From: Clostridia bacterium
Lineage (GTDB): Bacteria; Bacillota; Clostridia; TANB77; CAG-508
Length of the DNA: 64,000 bases
Assembly (NCBI GenBank): GCA_017469445.1
Contig: JAFUGK010000014.1
Span: forward strand, 160,229-224,228
Direction: 5' to 3'
The translations under genes and the position numbers were made by a program. Below the pieces are notes generated by a model. The model worked only from the letters and a program-made list of their open reading frames with translations. It did no database searches and had not been told where the DNA came from. This document shows positions 3,786 to 36,094 of the stretch, piece by piece. The stretch's first letter is position 1, and each line of letters begins with the position of its first letter.

Positions 3786-4586
3786 TTACATTATAATCAA
3801 AAATAAAAATGTAAATGGTGCTACAAAAATTATACTATCTAATCTATCTAACATTCCTCCATGTCCTGGAATCAAATTACTAAAATCTTTAACACCTGCA
3901 TATCTTTTTATTGTAGAAGCTGCCAAGTCTCCAATTTGCCCTACTATGCTTAAACAAATTGCAACAATTGCTATATATAAATAAGATATATTAAAGTTTA
4001 AGTATGTATTAAGTACAAATGTATAACCAAGTGTTAACAATAATCCACCTAAAAGACCTCCTATACACCCTTCAATGCTCTTTTTAGGACTTATAGATGT
4101 AAATTTATGCTTACCACACATTTTTCCTATTAAATATGCAAATAAATCTGTTCCCCATGCTGATAAAATTGCATACCATACTAATAACTTTCCATTCTCC
4201 ATCTCTACAATTATTGGTAAAAATATTATAAGTCCAATTATATATATTATACCCAAAAACGTAATTGCAGCATCATAAATTGTAACTTTCATTTCTGTAA
4301 AAATTACTTTAGCAAAAATCCAAACAATTATAAATGGTATAAAAAACAACAAGTACATTTGTTGGCTTGAAGGTAATATATGTATAAATGGTATTATTAA
4401 AGCTGAAATATACCCAATTTCAACTATTGGTTTTGCCTTTCCTTTAAAGCATGAAAAATATTCATTTAAGCACATTATTGCAACAATTGTAAAAACTATA
4501 TTAATAATTAACTTATTTCCTAAAGTTAATACTGCAACAAGTAGTGGAAAGCCAAGAAGTCCAGATATCCATCTTTGCGTGTTCAT
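3786..4586 (-). CDS. cdsA: Phosphatidate cytidylyltransferase
   Basis: This is a multi-pass membrane protein with the C-terminal CTP-transferase signature SxxKRxxGVKDFSNLIPGHGGMLDRLDS. I prefer the ATG at 4586 (RBS AGGGGA) over the track start at 4616. It follows uppS. Confidence 0.85.
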   Translation of the reverse strand: MNTQRWISGLLGFPLLVAVLTLGNKLIINIVFTIVAIMCLNEYFSCFKGKAKPIVEIGYISALIIPFIHILPSSQQMYLLFFIPFIIVWIFAKVIFTEMKVTIYDAAITFLGIIYIIGLIIFLPIIVEMENGKLLVWYAILSAWGTDLFAYLIGKMCGKHKFTSISPKKSIEGCIGGLLGGLLLTLGYTFVLNTYLNFNISYLYIAIVAICLSIVGQIGDLAASTIKRYAGVKDFSNLIPGHGGMLDRLDSIIFVAPFTFLFLIIM

Positions 4587-6653: not shown

Positions 6654-6674
6654 TAGTTACACTCTCCTTCTTAT

Positions 6675-6756
6675 TTGTAAGGGGACACATCTTTCCCTAT
6701 GGTCATTAGCATGCAGGATAAGATATGTCCCCTTACTTATGAGCTAATGATGTCAT
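6675..6756. repeat. P1 intergenic hairpin repeat, copy b, immediately upstream of the pyrH RBS
   Basis: gtaaggggacacatctttcc ... ggataagatatgtccccttac forms a stem of about 17-20 bp, followed by ttatgagctaatgatgtca. On the minus strand a mini-ORF, ATG ACA TCA TTA GCT CAT AAG TAA (6756-6733), ends at the stem base. Confidence 0.7.
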
Positions 6757-6865
6757 ATTTCAAAATGCTCTCCTATAATATATTTTTATTATTTTATCAT
6801 ATATTATTATAAATTGGAAAGGTTTTTTGAAAATAATTTAACATTTTTTAGAAAAAATAATGTTT

Positions 6866-19864: not shown

Positions 19865-19969
19865 AATAATTAATAGTGAATAATACAAATGTGCTTCTTT
19901 GAGCCATGTTCAAATTATTCACTATTAATTATTCATTATTCACTATTCATTGCGATACGAAGTATCGCA
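19865..19969 (-). terminator. tRNA-Leu 3-prime module: a GC hairpin plus a 20-bp AT-rich perfect inverted repeat
   Basis: The GC hairpin is tgcgatac-gaa-gtatcgca (19951-19969), 4 nt after the CCA end. The inverted repeat is aataattaatagtgaataat (19865-19884) / attattcactattaattatt (19914-19933), followed by a T-run on the minus strand. Confidence 0.55.
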
Positions 19970-19973
19970 CATT

Positions 19974-20056
19974 TGGTGCCCGAGGTGGGACTCGAACCCA
20001 CATGGTTTCCCGCACGATTTTGAGTCGTGTGCGTCTGCCAATTCCGCCACTTGGGC
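19974..20056 (-). tRNA. tRNA-Leu (anticodon CAA), long variable arm, CCA encoded
   Basis: The minus-strand sequence is GCCCAAGTGGCGGAATTGGCAGACGCACACGACTCAAAATCGTGCGGGAAACCATGTGGGTTCGAGTCCCACCTCGGGCACCA. It has a T-arm GTGGG-TTCGAGT-CCCAC and an anticodon loop CTCAAAA. One A-C mismatch occurs in the acceptor stem. Confidence 0.85.
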
Positions 20057-20060
20057 ATTT

Positions 20061-20085
20061 AAAGGAATGAGAAACTCATTCCTTT
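20061..20085. terminator. Hairpin between the surface-protein gene and tRNA-Leu
   Basis: aaaggaatgag aaa ctcattccttt perfect 11-bp stem. Confidence 0.6.
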
Positions 20086-20120
20086 AATATATTAACATAT
20101 TTTTTATTTGTTGTCTAGAC

Positions 20121-21455
20121 CTATTCCTCTTTATTTTCTGTTTCACTTTCTTTATTTTCTTCAGTTTCAGATATTTCTTCTTCAACTTCTACATTATTTT
20201 TTCTTTTGCTTCTAACTATTGCTATTATTAATGCTATTATTGCAACTATAATTGCTGTTGCAATTGCAGCTATTATTGCAAGTTGTGTAATTAATGTATC
20301 TGATAATGCTGAAGTAGGTTTCATTTCTACTTTATTTACCACAATTTGATATATTTTTGTATCTTCGCCAATTTTAACCATAACAGTAACATTATTTATA
20401 CCATCTTTTAATTCTTTATTTCCCATAACTTCGATACTTGCTTGGCTTCCTGCTTCTACATTTACTTCTACTTCTGTTGCAGTTAAAGGAACTGCAACTT
20501 GATATTCATATTCATTTTCATTAAATACTGGCATTAATTCTGGTTCAAATGTTTTTCCATCTTCTACTTTTGCAATTACATTTAACCCTGTTATTCCTAA
20601 TACCTTTTGTTCAGTTGGTTCTTCTTCTTTTTCTGGTTCTTCGGCTGGGATTTCTTCTACTGGTGTTTCTTCAATAGGTTGTTCTTCTACAGGCTCTTCT
20701 ACTTTGTTTTCTTCTTCTCTAGTTATATACATAGTATATGTTTTTGTTGTTCCATCTTCTGCTGTACATGTTACTTTTACTGTATTACTTCCTACTTTTA
20801 ATGACTCATTTCCTGTTCCAGATATTTTTTGAGAGCTCTCTTGCTTTTCTGCATAAACTTCTACTTCAGATGTTTCATATGGCACTGTAACATAATATGT
20901 TGTTACTGAAGGTTTAAAATTTTTAAAATCATTTGGTCTAATTCCTAGCATTTTTAATTTATTATTACTTGATTTAGAAGATTCTTTAGGCTCTTGTGTT
21001 GTTGGTTTATTTTCAGCTGGTTTCTCTGTTGTTGTGGAAGTATCTGGTTTTTCTTCTGCTGGTTTTGGTTCTTCTGCTGGCTTTTCAACTGGTTTATTTA
21101 CTGTAACAGTTACAGATTGATCTGGATATGCTTTTGTTTCATTTGCATCTGTTACATTTCCAGAAATTTTAACTACATAAGTTCCTGCACTAGATGTATC
21201 TAGTGAATATGTTTTTGTTGTTTTTTGATTTTCAGCATCCCCATTATAACCTACTATTGAATCTGTTATACCACTTCCATTTACTTTTACATCCCAAGCT
21301 GCTGCATTTATATTAACTGTTATTGTTACACTTTCTCCAACATTTACACTAGTTTTATTTGCACTTATATTGGCTGTTGCAGCTTTTACATTTGTTATTC
21401 CAAATGCAAGTAAAATAAGTAAAGTAAATAATAATATTTTTATTGATTTTTTCAT
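20121..21455 (-). CDS. Cell-surface protein: signal peptide, Ig-like N-domain, Pro/Glu/Thr linkers, two cadherin-like beta-sandwich domains, C-terminal TM anchor
   Basis: The cadherin-like domains read LKMLGIRPNDFKNFKPSVTTYYVTVPYETSEVEVYAEK...TYTMYITRE and ITGLNVIAKV...YEYQVAVPLTATEVEVNVEA...IYQIVVNK. The C-terminal anchor is IIAAIATAIIVAIIALIIAIV, followed by an acidic tail. I prefer the ATG at 21455. Confidence 0.65.
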   Translation of the reverse strand: MKKSIKILLFTLLILLAFGITNVKAATANISANKTSVNVGESVTITVNINAAAWDVKVNGSGITDSIVGYNGDAENQKTTKTYSLDTSSAGTYVVKISGNVTDANETKAYPDQSVTVTVNKPVEKPAEEPKPAEEKPDTSTTTEKPAENKPTTQEPKESSKSSNNKLKMLGIRPNDFKNFKPSVTTYYVTVPYETSEVEVYAEKQESSQKISGTGNESLKVGSNTVKVTCTAEDGTTKTYTMYITREEENKVEEPVEEQPIEETPVEEIPAEEPEKEEEPTEQKVLGITGLNVIAKVEDGKTFEPELMPVFNENEYEYQVAVPLTATEVEVNVEAGSQASIEVMGNKELKDGINNVTVMVKIGEDTKIYQIVVNKVEMKPTSALSDTLITQLAIIAAIATAIIVAIIALIIAIVRSKRKNNVEVEEEISETEENKESETENKEE

Positions 21456-21486
21456 TAATAACATCCTTTCTACACTATAACCTATT

Positions 21487-23652
21487 TTATATTGTTATAG
21501 TAGCTGTTCCTTTAAGGTATTTTACTATTCTTAGTAAATCAGCAGAATCTACCATACCATCATTATTAGCATCTCCAGATTTTTCTATTTCAATAAGCTT
21601 AATACCTTTTAAATGTTTTACTATTTTTAATAAATCTGATGAATCTATTGTGCCATCCCCATCAGCATCTCCTAGTTTTATTACTACATATTCTACTTCA
21701 TCAATTAAAACTTTATTCCCTGTTGCCAGTAATTTTGTAGAATCTTCAATTTTATTTCCATCTTTATCTTTTGCAATAGCATTTTCACTTTTAGCTATCA
21801 AATCGCTTACTTTTGCCGTTGGTTCACATTTAATAATTTTATTTTCTGCATCAATCGCTATCATATCAGTATTTGGCTTAGGTTCTTCTTTTTTCTTTAC
21901 TAGTTGTAAATATTCTGATGATGCATATCCAACAACTCCATCAAATGTTTTTACTTTTGACCACTGCACTCCATTTGCATTTGAAACATTTTCTTCTAGT
22001 CTAATTGCTAATGCGCCTTTTGGTATCTTGCATAAAATATTTTTATCTGTACCTGGTTCTTCTCTTAATGATAATGGATAATTTTGTGTTATTACTTTTA
22101 CAATATCGCCCTCATAACTCTTAATTTCATTTACAAGAGCTACTGAAATTATATAGCCCTGCACTCCATCTGGTAATTTAACCCTGTCCCATGTATATCC
22201 ATCTAATGTATATTTTGCCTTGTCTATTATTGTTAATTGCTCTCCTATTGCAATATTTTTTACAATTTCAGTTTGAGAACTACCTGGACCATTTCTTAAA
22301 TTAGTTATAGCATTTGTATATGCTACCTCATTGCATGTAATAACATCATTAATTTTTTCTACAAATTGATTTGAAATATATCCTATTGTTCCATTAGGCA
22401 AAACAACTTTATCCCAAACATATCCATTTACCTGCTCTAAGCCTTGCTCAATTCTAAGTAAAATATCTCCTCCATTTACTTTAGCAATTGCTTCAGAATT
22501 TGTAGTTTTATCCTTTCTAATATTTATATCTGTATGTCCTGATTTTATAATAATATTATCTGTTACTATTCTACTTACTGTAGTTGGCATAGCACATGGA
22601 TAATATGGCATATTTTCATACACTGGAATAATAAAATTATAATTATTATCTAAAACTCCTAAAGAATTATATGATCTATATATTGACTTTCCCTCTGATT
22701 CTGCTGCTTGAATATTTGCTTGATATTGATGCCTATATAGTGAACCACTTTCTTGGCTTACATTAAATTTTTCTAAATATAATGTATCCTGTCCCTTAGA
22801 TATGTATGATGATGCAATTATTTCAGCTCCACCTTTTATAGCAGCCTCTGGGCTTGTCCAGCCGTGGTCATTTGCATATTTTAAACCTCTTGTAATTGCT
22901 CCTTGCCCTGTTGATGCTCCAATATTAAAAAAGTTATATAATCCTTTATATCCATCAACATTTCCTGTTGCAGAATTGCTTGGGCCTCCACCTTGTATTA
23001 CAATTTCTTGTCTTATTCTTGCAGCCAAATGATATGGGCTTACTCTTTTAGTTATTCCTGCCTCATTAATTATTTGAGCAAATGTACTATCTGTATAGTT
23101 TGCATTATTATAATAACTTCTTGGTGAAGTATTTGCCATAAATGTTCCTGCTAGTATTTTTTCAATTCCTGTCTCTGTATACAAATCATCTGTATAAGAT
23201 AATCTTTCAAATTGGAAAATTTGGTTTTCATATAAGAAATTTCTTGGATCTATATAATAACTAATTGCTTTTATAGATGGGCAATGCCAATCGCTTCCTT
23301 CGTATACTCTTGGTGTACCATCATCATTTAAGCAAGATGCTTCTGTACATAACCATGCCCCAGACTTTCCTTCAATTAAGTTATCTCCATGATTTAGCAT
23401 TTCGTTATATATAACATCATTCCAATTTAAACCTGTATAAAAAAGTGTAAAATTCCAGCTAGAATGTGCAGCCTTTAAATTTTTTAGTAGAGCTTTATAT
23501 CCTGGATATCTTGATTCATCTATATTATCTAAATTAGTATTTTCTCTATATTGACTTCCATAAGAAATAATAGGAAGCATAATTGACATTATTAGAATTA
23601 AAACTAGAACTATTGCTATATTTTTCATAAAAATACTAGCCTTTTTTCTCAT
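21487..23652 (-). CDS. Cell-wall hydrolase: GH73-type N-acetylglucosaminidase + three SH3b domains + C-terminal type I dockerin
   Basis: 721 aa. A glucosaminidase region (SPYHLAARIRQE, GLYNFFNIGA) is followed by repeated SH3_3 modules (GY.WDKV.LP.G..GY). The dockerin duplicated EF-hand is GDADGDGTIDSSDLLKIVKHLKG / GDANNDGMVDSADLLRIVKYLKG. Confidence 0.75.
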   Translation of the reverse strand: MRKKASIFMKNIAIVLVLILIMSIMLPIISYGSQYRENTNLDNIDESRYPGYKALLKNLKAAHSSWNFTLFYTGLNWNDVIYNEMLNHGDNLIEGKSGAWLCTEASCLNDDGTPRVYEGSDWHCPSIKAISYYIDPRNFLYENQIFQFERLSYTDDLYTETGIEKILAGTFMANTSPRSYYNNANYTDSTFAQIINEAGITKRVSPYHLAARIRQEIVIQGGGPSNSATGNVDGYKGLYNFFNIGASTGQGAITRGLKYANDHGWTSPEAAIKGGAEIIASSYISKGQDTLYLEKFNVSQESGSLYRHQYQANIQAAESEGKSIYRSYNSLGVLDNNYNFIIPVYENMPYYPCAMPTTVSRIVTDNIIIKSGHTDINIRKDKTTNSEAIAKVNGGDILLRIEQGLEQVNGYVWDKVVLPNGTIGYISNQFVEKINDVITCNEVAYTNAITNLRNGPGSSQTEIVKNIAIGEQLTIIDKAKYTLDGYTWDRVKLPDGVQGYIISVALVNEIKSYEGDIVKVITQNYPLSLREEPGTDKNILCKIPKGALAIRLEENVSNANGVQWSKVKTFDGVVGYASSEYLQLVKKKEEPKPNTDMIAIDAENKIIKCEPTAKVSDLIAKSENAIAKDKDGNKIEDSTKLLATGNKVLIDEVEYVVIKLGDADGDGTIDSSDLLKIVKHLKGIKLIEIEKSGDANNDGMVDSADLLRIVKYLKGTATITI

Positions 23653-23805
23653 TGTATCCTCCTAATTTATCGAAATATGTAATTTTTCATAATTAGAGTA
23701 TACCATTGTTATAAATATTAAGTCAATAGAATATTCTTCCTTTACAAAAATGTAAAGAAAATGTAACATTTTAGACATAAAAATTTAAATATTAACAAAA
23801 GCCAT

Positions 23806-23887
23806 GAGGATGTTTTAAGGGACACCTACCAAAAACAGCTTGGAAAAATCCAAGCTGTTTTTGGTAGGTGTCCCTTAAAACATCCTC
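23806..23887. repeat. P2 palindromic repeat, copy a: perfect hairpin with a stem of about 39 bp, 6 nt after the tsf stop
   Basis: gaggatgttttaagggacacctaccaaaaacagcttgga aaaa tccaagctgtttttggtaggtgtcccttaaaacatcctc. The core GGGACACCTACC(A/G)AAAACAG is shared with 33072-33140 and, in diverged form, with 25766-25831. Confidence 0.85.
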
Positions 23888-23893
23888 GTTAAA

Positions 23894-24797: not shown

Positions 24798-25586
24798 TTA
24801 TTCTTCTTCGTTTGCTACAACTTCTTCAATTGTTGTAGGTTCTTCAGCTACTTCTTCTTGTTGTTCTGCAGTTTCTTCTACCATAGTTGTATCTTGTACA
24901 ACTTCACCTTGTCTTCCTTCAATAACTGCATTTGCCATAACATCTGCTATTAATTTAACAGCACGAATTGCATCATCATTTCCAGGTATTGCATAGTCAA
25001 CATCTTCTGGATTACAGTTTGTATCAACTAATCCTACTACTGGAATGTGTAATTTTCTAGCTTCTAATATTGCTATTCTTTCTTTTTTAGGATCAACTAT
25101 GAAAAGTGCTCCTGGTAATTTTGTCATTTCTTTAATTCCACCAAGGTTCTTTTCTAACTTTTCCATTTCTTTCTTTAAAACAATTACTTCTTTTTTAGGT
25201 AACATATCAAATGTTCCATCTGCTTGCATTGTTTCTAATTTTTTTAGTCTTTCTACTCTATTTCTAATAGTATCAAAGTTTGTAAGCATTCCACCTAACC
25301 ATCTTTGGTCAACATAGAACATATTGCATCTTAAAGCTGCATCTTTAACACATTCTTGTGCTTGTTTCTTTGTACCTACAAATAGAATATCCTTTCCTTC
25401 CTCAGCTTGCTCTTTTATAAAAGCATAAGCCTCGTCTAATTTTTTTGATGTTTTTTGTAAATCGATAATATGGATTCCATTTCTAGCTTGAAATATGTAT
25501 TCAGCCATTTTAGGATCCCATCTTCTTGTTTGATGTCCAAAATGAACACCTGCTTCTAAAAGTTGTTTCATAGCTACTACTGCCAT
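24798..25586 (-). CDS. rpsB: 30S ribosomal protein S2 (with an acidic C-terminal tail)
   Basis: [19 protein letters not shown] is present, along with other typical S2 motifs. The C-terminal 40 aa are Glu-rich. Confidence 0.95.
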
Positions 25587-25738
25587 TTTAAAATTCCTCC
25601 CTTTTTGTTATACATCCATAGACCTTTAAATTCGCTAAAAGCTCACTTATTATATATAAGCACAAACCCTAGCTAAGCCTATGTGTTTATTTTAACTGTT
25701 ATAGTATATCAAATTTTTTTAGATTTAGCAATACTTTG

Positions 25739-25760
25739 GTGAAAAATAATTGTGTTTTTC
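25739..25760. repeat. 22-bp perfect direct repeat, right copy (gtgaaaaataattgtgtttttc)
   Basis: It is identical to 27555-27576 and lies 6 nt upstream of the putative rpsB -35 element (TTGCTA on the minus strand). Confidence 0.85.
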
Positions 25761-25765
25761 GACCA

Positions 25766-25831
25766 AAAATTGGACACACCCCAAAATCTGGTTAATATTT
25801 CCTAACATGTTTTTGGTATGTGTCCAATTTT
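25766..25831. repeat. P2 palindromic repeat, copy c (diverged), downstream of the pilin-like gene
   Basis: aaaattggacacaccccaaaa ... ttttggtatgtgtccaatttt. The right arm reads GGACACATACCAAAAACATG on the minus strand and resembles the P2 core. Confidence 0.65.
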
Positions 25832-25906
25832 CGCTTTTTACACTTAAGCATGCAAATCCATTGTCCTGCTATTCTTATTTATTTATAAACTCTGGTTCGT
25901 TACTCT

Positions 25907-27421
25907 TCATACTGTATCGCTACCAGAGGTCATTGCTACAAGTAAAAACTGAAACGAAAACCGTGTGCTAGCGATGTTTGTTCTCGATTCATCATTATAG
26001 CCACGAGTAGCTACTGGATAATAACCACCACTGTTGCCGTAAGATTCACCTCGTTCAACTCGATAGATTCCTGTTGAATATTTTTCTTGGGTCCATTCAG
26101 ATACATTTCCTGCTAAATCGTAAATATTATTTGCTTTCCAATATTCACTTGCTGCTACATTTTGATTTTCTCTATATGCCCATGGTGAATTGTTTGCTGG
26201 TGATATTGAATCAGAGTGATTTCCCCAATTTCTACTATCTGTTGCTGACAACTCTGTTGTATCTTCTATCCAACTTAGTACACTATCCCATTCTATTCCA
26301 TACATTAAATGTGTATTTGCTATACTATTTGCACTACTTGCTCTTATTGCATCTGTATCTTTACTTGAATTATTTTGCGCTATACTTACCCATTGTGTTT
26401 CTCCTCTTTTACTTTGTGCTACATTGCCTGTTCCTTGACTAGCTTCATAACGTGATATATAGAACCCTTTATTTGTATTTACACTACTTACCATATTAGT
26501 ATATTCTGTTGTACCTGTTTCTTCCCAATATGCATTTTCTGTTGATGTATCTGCTAATGTTTGTGTTTTTGTACTATTTTTATATGTCCATGTCCATGCC
26601 GTTCTTGCAAAATTGCTTGAACTTGGTATTGGTACCCATACAAATTCTTCCCCTGCTGCATTTTTTACTACTACACCTGCATTTATTTGTGCTGCTGTAA
26701 TACTACTCCATTGGGCTGCTGGCATTACACTCTTTACACTTCCATCCTCGCCTGGTGCACTTGTTGTTGAATTGCTTCCATTTAATATTGCTGGTGCAAA
26801 TCCTATTGGTATTACTATTTGTATGTTATTGGTTGCATCTGCTACTATTCTTGTGTTTACTGTAGCATATCCATTTTCATCTACACTTGCATTTTGTCCT
26901 GTACTTAATGTTGTTACTGGTACTCCCCATATTGCATATAATGTTAAATCTGATGTAACTTCTGCTCCTTCTGCATAACTTGTTCCACTTCCATCGGCTA
27001 GCGTATTCCATCCCCTAAATACTTTCCCACTTGGTGCTGTAAATCCATTTGTTCCTGTTGCTGATGCTGTTTCTGAATTCATTATTCCTGTTCCACCATT
27101 TGCATTATATGTTATTGTGTATGTTTGTGCTGGTGGTGTATCATCGTCATCATCATTTTCTGTTCCTCCAGCTTGTTCTCCTCCCATGTATTTTGCAAAT
27201 AAGTCTTTTACTTGGTTTAATACCTTTTGGTCTTCATCTGCTGATTTGTTATATCTTTCTACTGCATTATTTGCATTATCTATTATGCTAGTGTTTCCCG
27301 TTAATGTAGCTAGTGCTACTCCTGCTAGTATTAATAGCACTATTATTGTAATTACAAGTGCTATTAATGTTATACCTAAGTTATGTTTAAATATTTTTGT
27401 TTTTTCTTTTTGTTTATCCAT
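25907..27421 (-). CDS. Pilin-like-anchored protein with a Flg_new (Listeria-Bacteroides) repeat and a C-terminal FGE-sulfatase/C-lectin-fold domain; candidate DGR variable protein
   Basis: 504 aa. The N-terminus is KHNLGITLIALVITIIVLLILAGVA. The Flg_new repeat reads TYTITYNANGGTG...FRGWNTLADGSG...LTLYAIW. The FGE-type motifs are FYISRYEAS, MYGIEWDSVLSW, YDLAGNVSEWTQ and RGES. The RBS is AAAGGAG. Confidence 0.7.
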   Translation of the reverse strand: MDKQKEKTKIFKHNLGITLIALVITIIVLLILAGVALATLTGNTSIIDNANNAVERYNKSADEDQKVLNQVKDLFAKYMGGEQAGGTENDDDDDTPPAQTYTITYNANGGTGIMNSETASATGTNGFTAPSGKVFRGWNTLADGSGTSYAEGAEVTSDLTLYAIWGVPVTTLSTGQNASVDENGYATVNTRIVADATNNIQIVIPIGFAPAILNGSNSTTSAPGEDGSVKSVMPAAQWSSITAAQINAGVVVKNAAGEEFVWVPIPSSSNFARTAWTWTYKNSTKTQTLADTSTENAYWEETGTTEYTNMVSSVNTNKGFYISRYEASQGTGNVAQSKRGETQWVSIAQNNSSKDTDAIRASSANSIANTHLMYGIEWDSVLSWIEDTTELSATDSRNWGNHSDSISPANNSPWAYRENQNVAASEYWKANNIYDLAGNVSEWTQEKYSTGIYRVERGESYGNSGGYYPVATRGYNDESRTNIASTRFSFQFLLVAMTSGSDTV

Positions 27422-27554
27422 TTTTATCTCCTTTCTTTTGTTGTGCGTTTGCTTATTTAAAATATGTTTCTCAATTTTTTTCCATTATACACATATTTAT
27501 TTATTTATTTTTTTCTGCAATAGTTTTTTATTAATTTATGTATAACTAAAATTA

Positions 27555-27576
27555 GTGAAAAATAATTGTGTTTTTC
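27555..27576. repeat. 22-bp perfect direct repeat, left copy (gtgaaaaataattgtgtttttc)
   Basis: It is identical to 25739-25760, and the two copies are 1816 bp apart. Confidence 0.85.
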
Positions 27577-27595
27577 CATGAAAAAGTCATATTTC

Positions 27596-27695
27596 AAAGT
27601 TATCTCCTTATCTTATTTAGGTAACACTGTAGCCCAACGTAGGCGATGCGGCATGACCCCATCGCCGGCTAAGATTGGGCGGACTTTTGTGCTAT
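27596..27695 (-). repeat. P3 GC-rich two-stem element, copy a (candidate structured RNA or recombination site), directly after the KAP NTPase stop
   Basis: The outer stem is gcccaa (27632-37) / ttgggc (27675-80). The inner stem is ggcgatg (27642-48) / catcgcc (27660-66). The flanks aaagttatctccttat and gggcggac.ttt.tg are shared with the copy at 35980-36094. Confidence 0.65.
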
Positions 27696-27728
27696 TTTTA
27701 ACGAGCAATGTACGCCCCTACATTTATA

Positions 27729-29711
27729 TCAGTCTACTTCTTCTACAACTTGTGTTATTGATGGTACATCAACATTGTACTTAGCCAAAATTTTTTCTAA
27801 ATCTTTAGAAAGTTCTTTTAACATAACAATTTTAATACCAATTTCTTTTCCTTCAATATAGTTATCTACAACAGTTTTTAGTTTCTTTATGTTTTCCATT
27901 TCTGGTTCTATTTCATTTTTGTGCTTCTCTACTCTTCTCATTAGCATCTCACGTATTGTAACAATATCTTCATTGTTAGCACATGAAATTCTTTGGAACA
28001 TTTGGTATACATCATAATACTTAAATATTGGTATATCCATACATTCTTGGTCAAATCTTGCAAAAAATGTTTCCATTCTCATTGGTATACATTTGAATAT
28101 ATCTTCAGCTTTTTCTTTATACATTTTGTCTTTTAAAGTTTGATTTATCATTTCAAAATGATCCAATATTTCTTTTATGTCTGATGTTACATTTGTTAGC
28201 CCTATTTGTGCTAATTGTTCATTTACATTATCACAATATGTTGATGTTAATGACGCAACATTCATTCCATTTAAAAAAGTAGTTTTAACTGTTCTCATAT
28301 CATATTTAATTAAATTCTTATCTATAAAGTATGTGAAGTACACAAATAGTTTTACCATGTCTATAACTTCTATTTGACCATTTTTAACAGTTTCCATTAC
28401 TTCATCTATTACGCCTTCAAATTGATCATCTGCAATTTTCCAATATTCTTCAGTAAGCAAGCGCTTATATCCAGGTAATTTTTCTGTATCTATTGTATTT
28501 ATAATAACTTCCATATCATTTTTGAAAGTTTTCATATCAAATATTCTTGTACGCACATATATTTCGATAAATTTAAAGAATCTATATTCAGCTTTGAAAT
28601 TGTAATAGTAATTATTATCAAATTCTTTTATATAAAATTGTCTATTATCCATTAAAACCCTTGATGAAACTAATATTGCTTTATACTCCTCGTTATTCTC
28701 AATGTTTACAAATTTATCTTTTGTTATTTTACCTGCTTTAATCTCAAAAGATACAGCTATTGTAAATATTAGCATTGTTTTCAATACTTTTAAGTTTGTA
28801 TTTGGATAATATTTATTTACCATTTCGAATATTTTTCTAAAATCATTTAATGCATGTTTTAAAATTCTTAAGTTTCTTGTTCCACTCTTGTTAAAAGTAG
28901 AAAGAATTAACTGAACATTTTCTCGTAAAAACCTTATTAAATCTGGATTTACTTCGTATCGCATTAACAATCCATTTATTATATACGTAAATTCTGGAGC
29001 ATATTCAAAAGTTTCACCTATAAGCTTTTCTTTTATTCTTTCATAATCATTTGCTTTGTCGAAAACATATTCTATTTTATCTCGTATTTTTTCAACCATT
29101 GGCTTATCTGTTTTTGCTAAATCGCCTTCTTTATCTAATAGATAAGTTGCAATAAATGTTTTCATTTCTAAGTTACTACTTTTTAATTTTGTAGATAATT
29201 CTTTTTCATTACATATTATTATTGTTTTAATATGGTCATGTTCAACAAAATTATTTATATATCCTAGTATATCTATAACGTCTACATTTGCCCTCTCCAA
29301 GTCATCAAAGCAAAGAACTTTATCATCAGTAGAGAAGAAATTAGCATAATCTATTCTATCTCCATTTTGTGTTACGCCAAAGAAGTTTGCCATATCCAAT
29401 CCTGTTTTTGCATATTCTGGTATTGTTGTTTGGTTATGTGCATTCATATATTTTTTTAAATTCTTATCCATTAATTGTGTTGTTTCAATAAATATTTTTT
29501 TGCTTATATCTTCAAGGTTTGATATTCCATAAAGTGACATATATATTGTTGTATATTGTTTTCCATTTAATTCTAATGATTCTATTTTATTTCTAATTTT
29601 ATTGTTCCAAAAGTATGTTTTTCCGCTTCCCCACTCACCATTAATCATTATTGCATAATCTGTATATTCAGCTCTTACATAATCTAATATGCTTTCTACT
29701 AAATCCTCCAC
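27729..29711 (-). CDS. KAP-family P-loop NTPase (soluble form, no obvious TM insert)
   Basis: 660 aa. Walker A is INGEWGSGKTYFWNN and Walker B is VLCFDDLERAN, followed by a long helical C-terminal region. A GTG start with the RBS AAAGGAGG lies 17 nt after the comFC stop. Confidence 0.7.
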   Translation of the reverse strand: MEDLVESILDYVRAEYTDYAIMINGEWGSGKTYFWNNKIRNKIESLELNGKQYTTIYMSLYGISNLEDISKKIFIETTQLMDKNLKKYMNAHNQTTIPEYAKTGLDMANFFGVTQNGDRIDYANFFSTDDKVLCFDDLERANVDVIDILGYINNFVEHDHIKTIIICNEKELSTKLKSSNLEMKTFIATYLLDKEGDLAKTDKPMVEKIRDKIEYVFDKANDYERIKEKLIGETFEYAPEFTYIINGLLMRYEVNPDLIRFLRENVQLILSTFNKSGTRNLRILKHALNDFRKIFEMVNKYYPNTNLKVLKTMLIFTIAVSFEIKAGKITKDKFVNIENNEEYKAILVSSRVLMDNRQFYIKEFDNNYYYNFKAEYRFFKFIEIYVRTRIFDMKTFKNDMEVIINTIDTEKLPGYKRLLTEEYWKIADDQFEGVIDEVMETVKNGQIEVIDMVKLFVYFTYFIDKNLIKYDMRTVKTTFLNGMNVASLTSTYCDNVNEQLAQIGLTNVTSDIKEILDHFEMINQTLKDKMYKEKAEDIFKCIPMRMETFFARFDQECMDIPIFKYYDVYQMFQRISCANNEDIVTIREMLMRRVEKHKNEIEPEMENIKKLKTVVDNYIEGKEIGIKIVMLKELSKDLEKILAKYNVDVPSITQVVEEVD

Positions 29712-35873: not shown

Positions 35874-35974
35874 TTGTAAGGGGATACTTCTTTCCAAGCC
35901 TAGGACACTTCTTTTCCTATGGTCATTCCTCTTATGATAAGAAATGTCCCCTACTTATGAGCTAGTGATGTCAG
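35874..35974. repeat. P1 intergenic hairpin repeat, copy c (with an internal partial arm duplication), immediately upstream of the RBS of CDS 34902-35858
   Basis: tttgtaaggggatacttctttcc aagccta ggacacttcttttcctatggtcatt ... ataagaaatgtcccctacttatgagctagtgatgtca. It aligns with the copies at 2661-2742 and 6675-6756. Confidence 0.7.
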
Positions 35975-35979
35975 TTTTT

Positions 35980-36094
35980 AAAGTTATCTCCTTATTTTAT
36001 TTTGGCACAAAATAGCCCAACGTAGGCATTGCATTTTTCTTTCGAATACTTAAACATCCAATGCCGGCTAAGATTGGGCGGACCTTTATGATAT
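35980..36094 (-). repeat. P3 GC-rich two-stem element, copy b
   Basis: The outer stem is gcccaa (36015-20) / ttgggc (36074-79). The inner stem is ggcattg (36025-31) / caatgcc (36059-65), which has two compensatory base-pair changes relative to copy a. Confidence 0.65.

Follow-up and report, generated by a model that had tools for sequence, protein, structure and literature searches.

The stretch analyzed here, referred to as the window, comprises 64,000 nt of contig JAFUGK010000014.1 from a Clostridia bacterium and contains a minus-strand gene at 25907-27421 whose 3' end resembles the variable region (VR) of a diversity-generating retroelement (DGR) target. An earlier note, made from the letters of this stretch, had placed such a VR on a formylglycine-generating-enzyme (FGE)/C-lectin scaffold and its retroelement outside the window, and had suggested that the gene is a remote or orphan target or the fossil of one. 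The footprint left in the gene family and a complete DGR cassette found beside the closest homolog supported this view, and among the options the fossil fitted best, given 17 mismatches at 70 non-adenine sites of the template repeat (TR) and an indel. We consider it probable, at roughly 70%, that the window copy is a fossil, that is, a long-unrefreshed DGR target within an otherwise intact gene.

The target gene and its product

The following features make up the gene, its VR, and the DNA immediately downstream.

25907-27421, minus strand: target open reading frame (ORF) of 504 aa, a member of the DGR-target family (ORF list and sequence)
27311-27385, minus strand: prepilin-like N-terminal segment, aa 13-37 (Pfam N_methyl below cutoff, homolog alignment)
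26933-27121, minus strand: Flg_new (Listeria-Bacteroides repeat, PF09479), aa 101-163 (Pfam E 4.3e-10)
26045-26290, minus strand: FGE-sulfatase/C-type-lectin-like core, aa 378-459 (sub-cutoff Pfam, profile, and fold matches)
25947-26074, minus strand: VR, homologous to the family TR of locus L049 (alignment to that repeat, TR49)
25840-25946, minus strand: 3' DNA element past the TR homology, conserved in both frame classes of the family

The ORF was present as the earlier note had described it, its frame was intact over 504 codons, and the codons quoted there proved correct when checked on the sequence. The exact 504-aa protein was found on seven contigs from several samples. Its N-terminus reads KHNLG followed by ITLIALVITIIVLLILAGVA, with Gly at -1 and Ala instead of Glu at +5, and the core of this segment is G16-ITLIA, in which G16, I17, T18, and L19 were invariant in the homolog alignment. 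A helix was predicted at residues 15-41 in the AlphaFold model, and a profile of 89 family members matched pilin N-terminal helices with E values of 0.009-0.8. The complete class III signal (Gly at -1, hydrophobic helix, Glu at +5) was not found, as Ala replaces Glu+5; Pfam N_methyl scored below its cutoff (E 0.15; 12.1 against 21.2 bits), and no pilin model in NCBIfam matched the target protein. No pilus-related Pfam domain was detected in eight neighboring ORFs scanned, and no search for prepilin peptidase or pilus assembly genes was made. The proposed prepilin-like anchor thus held as a sequence feature and remained sub-threshold as a pilin domain: the short basic leader, the Gly, the hydrophobic helix of ~20 residues, and the weak family-profile matches recall type IV pilins and pseudopilins, whereas the Ala in place of the hallmark Glu+5, the Pfam score below cutoff, and the 504-aa length with lectin domains do not.

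The Flg_new repeat proposed earlier was confirmed by a Pfam match of 40 bits against a gathering cutoff of 27, although it occurs in few of the aligned homologs and is missing from most; the best Foldseek match overall, an InlB B-repeat (E >0.1), concerned this part of the protein. For the FGE-type domain, the support was of another kind. FGE-sulfatase (PF03781) stayed below its cutoff on the target alone (17.4 against 23.3 bits, E 0.0038), several homologs carry PF03781, and the family profile matched human SUMF2 (1y4j; E 0.0014) exactly across YDLAGN...RG...GFR, including the VR, into which the domain extends beyond aa 459. The AlphaFold model (mean pLDDT 75.7, confident over the conserved domains) gave weak matches in the PDB (E 0.2-0.5), with TvpA (2Y3C), EgtB, and PorK among the best. 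For the target protein alone, the modeled assignment to the FGE/C-lectin fold is therefore consistent but weak, and the profile and fold evidence supports the fold, rather than enzyme membership, of the FGE/SUMF1-EgtB-PvdO superfamily.

The variable region and the adenine footprint of the family

The last ~40 codons of the target (26074-25947), encoding ...TGIYRVERGESYGNSGGYYPVATRGYNDESRTNIASTRFSFQ, have an NNY, C-ending make-up. The earlier impression that C-ending codons are atypical was borne out by their enrichment in codons 451-491 (8/41) relative to the rest of the gene (26/463; Fisher p = 0.0036). The local rise in G+C was also real (43% at 25950-26099 vs 28.9% for the whole window) but not unique, as other parts of the same gene reach 44%, and G+C was rejected as a VR marker on this ground.

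A protein search with the target yielded 6,505 relatives (clusters at 90% identity), recorded almost wholly in metagenome assemblies, with related contigs named 'Clostridia bacterium' and 'uncultured Clostridium sp. UMGS1864'. When 25 and 121 homologs were aligned, the protein body proved strongly conserved and hypervariability was restricted to the last ~40 residues, where the variable positions are set in a fixed scaffold, STG-xx-RA-x-RGG-x5-GD-xx-PAA-x-R-x4-(AS|E[ST])-x-T-x4-5, common to the window copy and 120 homologs. At the DNA level, codon positions 1 and 2 of the VR were scrambled across the family, and position 3 was mostly kept. Across 61 distinct family VRs, the 13 columns templated by AAY codons of TR49 contained K, E, Q, M, or W in only 10 of 793 residues (1.3%). 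The single-adenine columns showed exactly the expected four-residue sets for TAC (Y35 C14 F6 S3) and GAC (D40 G9 V4 A3); the ACC column read T44 A7 P3 S1, and the adenine-free GCT column remained Ala in 58/61 VRs. The family footprint is that of adenine-only mutagenesis, not of general hypervariability, and the VR lies, as in other DGR targets, at the C-terminus of a lectin/FGE-type scaffold with the AAY repertoire in its variable residues.

Not every adenine behaved alike in the VRs examined, few as these sequences are. The adenines of AAY and AAA codons were changed about half the time, and the third-position adenines of the CGA, CCG/CCA, GCA, and GGA/GGC scaffold codons were hardly ever changed. 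TR49 itself carries most of these invariant third-position adenines (CGA, CCA, GCA, GGA), and uniform adenine mutagenesis does not explain why they are kept.

A complete cassette beside the closest homolog

P0002, the closest homolog, has the same architecture as the window protein (77-79% aa and 85% nt identity) and is followed directly downstream, on locus L049, by a complete DGR cassette in the order MutS_I ORF, bAvd, RVT_1 reverse transcriptase (RT), and TR. The RT carries the DGR-type motif GNYTSQ...YMDD, the Avd protein matched NCBIfam DivGenRetAVD (E 1.9e-19), and the TR is a 114-nt repeat lying 35 nt beyond the RT. The template product of the class to which the window copy belongs (class B, below) had been predicted from the VRs before the TR was located, and the translation of the TR, GTNRANRGGNYNNNGDNNPAANRNNNNETNTNNNKRFPFQL, was almost exactly as predicted. 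Between TR (4031-4144) and VR (1935-2048) of L049, 20 of 21 mismatches fell at TR adenines (A>G 12, A>T 7, A>C 1), and the homology terminated at ...CGGTTTCCGTTTCAGCT.

None of these cassette parts was found in the window. A blastn-short search with the VR and an adenine-tolerant sliding scan returned chance matches only, and neither the DGR motif pattern for RT nor tblastn with cognate-family RT, Avd, and MutS-like proteins gave a match in the 64 kb, so that the earlier statement that RT, Avd, and TR are absent withstood four tests. The same motif pattern found no DGR RT in 43 related loci (434 kb), which places most family members far from any cassette; most relatives had no RT within 10 kb, their neighbors being housekeeping genes, and self-blast of each related locus revealed no TR-VR repeats beside family genes. 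Pattern scans of viral contigs gave no match to the VR tail or to the predicted TR end, viral contigs yielded no relative of the target family, and the phage and plasmid collections contained no match to the window VR. In species-representative genomes, the predicted TR 3' end had no match, although it matches TR49 exactly, and a degenerate VR/TR pattern had a single match, a class-A VR in Clostridium sp. UMGS1864; these scans indicated that neither the window organism nor its DGR is among these genomes. A synthetic poly-Asn 'TR peptide' search did not recover the TR of the family, returning instead fragments of family members and ORFs (P0127-P0136) encoded by the TRs of other low-G+C DGRs, and no TR-like ORF with the family 5' context was present in the protein database.

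All members of the RT cluster (L049, L054-L058) lie on contigs of <=5.2 kb, and the contigs that hold remote targets are 200-480 kb long. Assemblies seem to break at the cassette, probably owing to the repetition of target and TR sequences, and the cassette would easily be missed in a binned genome. Another low-G+C DGR lineage with the same MutS_I-bAvd-RT-TR order was found on L050-L053; its TR encodes RGGNYNNNGSNNPAANRNNNNTTNANNNIGFRVTL, and its RT is split or truncated (135-aa and 122-aa pieces) in two of these four contigs.

The window copy compared with the template

TR49 was taken as the reference, and VRs were projected on its 44 A-sites and 70 non-A sites, with the following results.

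P0002 VR: 20/44 A-sites changed, 1/70 non-A sites changed (the single site is polymorphic, C/A, between TR copies)
P0005 VR: 22/44 A-sites changed, 0/70 non-A sites changed (VR at about L001 11150-11283; ~64% identical protein, upstream of rpsL-rpsG-fusA-tuf)
P0009 VR: 18/44 A-sites changed, 1/70 non-A sites changed
Window VR: 19/44 A-sites changed, 17/70 non-A sites changed (plus a 3-nt insertion, one extra codon in frame)

P0005 lies at the rpsL locus with no RT within 10 kb, yet all 70 non-A sites match the TR, and the match of remote members at all or nearly all non-A sites indicates that trans targeting occurs in the family. The window VR behaved differently, its differences not being confined to adenines when compared with the sole family TR lineage recovered (L049, L054). 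The 17 non-A changes comprised C>T 9, G>A 4, T>A 2, C>A 1, and C>G 1, and most of the resulting states (~10) were private among 14 VRs of both frame classes, including GGC>GAA, which converts Gly to Glu in the near-invariant RGG motif. Two C>T changes fell in the last 17 nt of the TR homology, at the end that would correspond to an initiation-of-mutagenic-homing (IMH) site, where the terminal CGGTTTCCGTTTCAGCT reads CGGTTTTCGTTTCAGTT in the window; the inverted repeat beyond it was kept.

Frame classes and the conserved 3' element

Among the 120 best matches, 73 end in GFRxSFYL* (class A), 39 end in R[FV]PFQLLLVA... (class B, which includes the window copy), and 6 have truncated or frameshifted ends. 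Class B differs from class A by one extra base just before GGTTTCCGT, so that the conserved 3' DNA, ...CAGCTTTTACTTGTAGCACTG.ACTCTGGTAGCGATG..., is read in another frame; in the class-B VRs (window 25947-25966), the conserved GGTTTCCGTTTCAGC...TAG DNA is read as RFPFQLLLVA... and not as GFRFSFYL*. The +1 frame is carried by the TR itself (L049 4031-4144), and class B is a heritable frame class, not a set of pseudogenes.

This 3' DNA is conserved in both classes, whether coding or beyond the stop codon, which indicates conservation as DNA and not as protein. In the window, the element reads TTTTACTTGTAGCA.TG.C.TCTGGTAGCGAT..., the initial 40 nt, 25907-25946, encode the tail LLVAMTSGSDTV and the stop codon, and homology with L049 stops at 25840. 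An inverted repeat within it (arms 25922-25929 and 25888-25896, 25-nt loop, 7-bp stem) gave a modest DNA-fold score (z = -1.6). From its sequence, we take the element to be a putative analogue of an IMH site plus hairpin.

Strain comparison

The window VR was identical in five assemblies from different samples. The DNA of the target gene was identical in L005, L006, and L007, in a case where the L006 flanks differ at 32/6,151 nt, and the L003 gene (P0001) showed two differences from the window gene, both outside the VR. Variation between strains was thus not concentrated in the VR across the five consensus assemblies. A 1.9-kb contig of sample ERZ27270723, in which the window strain is present as well, carries an RT with 98% identity to the L049 enzyme, together with Avd and a TR that departs from TR49 at 1 nt. 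Sample ERZ27256838 contains both P0005 and the window gene, each on a long contig (211 kb and 477 kb), and the further RT-cluster members looked up all came from other samples, none from this one. The earlier note had named two findings that together would speak against a DGR origin, an identical C-terminus in related strains and the absence of any RT or TR from the genome; the former was observed, whereas a near-identical RT and TR did occur in a metagenome sample with the strain.

The window gene shares exact matches of 164, 104, and 98 nt with the P0002 gene and is 94-98% identical to the P0005 gene over the first ~240 nt; the three genes are mosaics. Together with the shared samples and the intergenic repeat that precedes all three genes (below), this is indirect evidence that the DGR belongs to the window organism.

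Genomic context and turnover of the copies

Two further features surround the gene.

25719-27790, no strand assigned: 2.07-kb segment comprising the upstream repeat, the gene, and the 3' element, absent from the syntenic comF-KAP-rpsB locus of UMGS1864
27583-27695, minus strand: copy of a G+C-rich (0.47) intergenic repeat upstream of the target (blastn, alignment)

In uncultured Clostridium sp. UMGS1864 (L044), where comF-like, KAP-NTPase, and rpsB genes are contiguous and the latter two lie 163 nt apart, alignment was limited to window positions 30376-27790 and 25719-24588. In a related species (L045, 7726-10330), a family gene upstream of lepA is broken into five ORFs (140, 133, 154, 111, and 109 aa) in a region of ~80% nucleotide synteny with the window around lepA, and this gene is a pseudogenised target; its VR shows 10/70 non-A mismatches to TR49. 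The absent segment in UMGS1864 and the broken lepA copy indicate that copies come, go, and decay at different housekeeping loci. A distant paralog of 532 aa is encoded at L044 2410-4008; it begins with the same N-terminal helix (KGITLI...), and its FGE-like C-terminus (…VRGGRAGHGENAGIFAFSYDKGGAIKNTSFRPCL) does not have the appearance of a DGR-templated sequence.

The intergenic repeat, …AGCACAAAAGTCCGCC.AATCTTAGCCGGC.TTGG…GCCTACGTT.GGCTAC…, had no match in Rfam. It also precedes P0005 (L001 9776-9964) and P0002 (L049 357-450), and its three other window copies (35903-36094, 6663-6795, and 2649-2747) precede unrelated genes (recJ-like, amino-acid kinase, and a 331-aa ORF). Around the target gene, Rfam returned chance-level miRNA matches only, and no tRNA was found nearby. 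Several family genes lie directly upstream of translation operons in the same orientation, including rpsB-tsf (window 24798-27421), rpsL-rpsG-fusA-tuf (P0005, L001 10001-16128), and rpsF-ssb-rpsR (P0010, L004 10001-13490), as well as lepA (the fragmented copy, L045 7726-12367). From the arrangement of the sequences, this placement may stem from co-transcription or from a preference in insertion. A near-palindrome lies at 25766-25831, between the target gene and rpsB (29-nt arms with 83% complementarity, 8-nt spacer); L003 and L005-L007 have it too, and it may act as a terminator or belong to an rpsB leader. Downstream of tsf, window 19865-23890 and L006 6341-10297 share 86-96% identity, with extra genes in L006 and flanks at 99.4-99.5%; this region encodes a 721-aa SH3_3/dockerin protein and a 447-aa cadherin-like protein.

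Interpretation and alternative explanations

The target protein would be surface-exposed and ligand-binding, built from a prepilin-like membrane helix, a helical stalk, an acidic linker, Flg_new, and the FGE-type C-lectin domain, and it is presumably still made and displayed. Its C-terminal 128 nt would have been written in the past by a DGR of the MutS-like/Avd/RT/TR type from a TR49-type template, with the DGR located elsewhere, presumably in the same genome, and acting in trans on several paralogs. The window VR would then have gone unrewritten for a long time, taking up ordinary AT-biased point mutations at positions that the template would restore, gaining an extra in-frame codon, and acquiring the pair of C>T changes in the 3' part of the TR-VR homology, the expected starting point of cDNA integration; homing into this copy would now be impaired. 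The changes in the window are nearly all toward A/T, as expected from drift in a 29% G+C genome with no reset from a more G+C-rich template. Several points weigh against a fossil. The genome was seen in part, which leaves room for a second, diverged TR fitting the window VR, co-occurrence in a metagenome sample does not prove one shared genome, and minority variants are not visible in consensus assemblies. As the window keeps the downstream inverted repeat, the target might still be recognized; sites 37, 49, 51, and 70 of the 17 mismatches are shared with other TR lineages or known TR polymorphism; and the excess of A-site over non-A-site changes in the window copy alone reached only p = 0.04. 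The VRs of P0002 and P0005 were also invariant between the assemblies seen, and as these look live, strain invariance by itself is not diagnostic, whereas the non-A mismatch count is.

The main alternative is a live remote target, whose cognate TR (from a second, diverged DGR or a TR variant) would lie in the genome and whose diversification would be episodic and too rare to surface in consensus assemblies. We judge this unlikely. Remote targets do exist, both in the family (P0005) and in the literature (PMC5758913), the reading frame, scaffold, and downstream inverted repeat of the window copy are intact, its A-site changes (43%) exceed its non-A changes (24%), other TR lineages with CCA and 'ES' states are clearly present in the family, and live-looking targets share the invariance between assemblies. 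Nevertheless, the sole RT/TR lineage found in the sample of the strain is nearly identical to TR49, against which the window VR shows its 17 non-A mismatches and one indel; the ~10 private states, one of which breaks the near-invariant RGG, speak in the same direction, as does the failure to find a TR in the genome or viral collections or a TR-like ORF with the family 5' context in the protein database.

Decay of the whole gene, which would make it a non-functional remnant of a duplicated target with a frame merely still open, is in our view improbable, more so than a live target. Fragmented copies do occur in related species (in L045, the copy upstream of lepA lies in five consecutive pieces), the ends of several homologs are frameshifted or truncated, and the window copy alters the conserved scaffold (RGE for RGG, PVA for PAA). 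On the other hand, the frame is open over all 504 codons, strains with 0.5% divergence in the flanks carry an identical gene, no family-invariant residue is lost in the rest of the protein, and the AlphaFold model is confident over the conserved domains. It is very improbable that the C-terminal variability is unrelated to a DGR, arising from positive selection or paralog recombination with a codon pattern produced by chance. The paralogs are indeed recombining mosaics, and neither the window nor the 10 kb around most homologs contains an RT or TR; this explanation is nonetheless already refuted for the family, whose repertoire is precisely what mutating only the adenines of the recovered TR would produce, with TR and VR of L049 differing at 20 adenines plus one other base and P0005 matching the TR at 70/70 non-A sites. 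For the window copy, never having been derived from a TR is implausible given the shared scaffold and third-codon positions.

Relation to known systems and significance

A MutS-like (MSL) accessory gene together with avd defines the 'Architecture D' of Wu et al. 2018, of which a Legionella DGR is an example; remote targets are also documented in that study (PMC5758913). The L049 cassette agrees with this architecture (PMC5758913) in its MutS_I ORF, Avd, SQ-motif RT, TR, and adenine-specific TR-VR differences, and the system is an MSL/Avd DGR with remote targets, a type already known. It differs in that the window itself has no cassette part, the TR lies 3' of the RT in L049, the hosts are gut Clostridia of ~29% G+C, and the cassettes occur on contigs of <=5.2 kb only. 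Similar to TvpA (2Y3C) of the Treponema denticola DGR, the target has an FGE-type C-lectin fold with a C-terminal VR, and one TR serves several remote targets; in contrast, the fold match is weak (E 0.27, TM 0.17-0.29), the window copy lacks the non-adenine match, and the N-terminus of the family is a pilin-like helix, sometimes with Flg_new, where TvpA is a lipoprotein. A perfect non-adenine TR-VR match is an accepted sign of trans diversification, and in Thiohalocapsa PB-PSB1, trans-diversified and 'degenerate' DGR loci were described along with targets that are not visibly diversifying (PMC10907252). The non-varying target of PB-PSB1 still matches its TR perfectly (PMC10907252), whereas the window VR has drifted at 24% of non-A sites.

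A VR orphaned within a 64-kb window could thus be assigned to a retroelement via the cassette beside its closest homolog, and the count of non-adenine mismatches separated targets still rewritten from those that have dropped out. Points of some interest are the family size and the pilin-like anchor, the TR-borne frame class, the placement upstream of translation operons, and a clear case of a dropped-out target. We tentatively entertain a broader possibility, which we hold to be more doubtful than the fossil itself, namely that gut Clostridia possess a very large family of pilin-like-anchored lectins diversified in trans by one small MSL-Avd-RT-TR cassette, with a TR-borne frame class and copies parked upstream of translation operons, and that the window copy is an uncoupled, selected, hard-wired receptor, its specificity fixed after descent from a hypervariable ancestor, rather than junk. 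If this were true, three features (the TR-borne frame class, operon parking, and uncoupled fixed copies) would go beyond the usual picture. The family, with >6,500 clusters at 90% identity, represents candidate diversified surface receptors or adhesins in poorly known low-G+C Clostridia, and the frozen copy in the window would offer a natural comparison for what a DGR target becomes once diversification stops.

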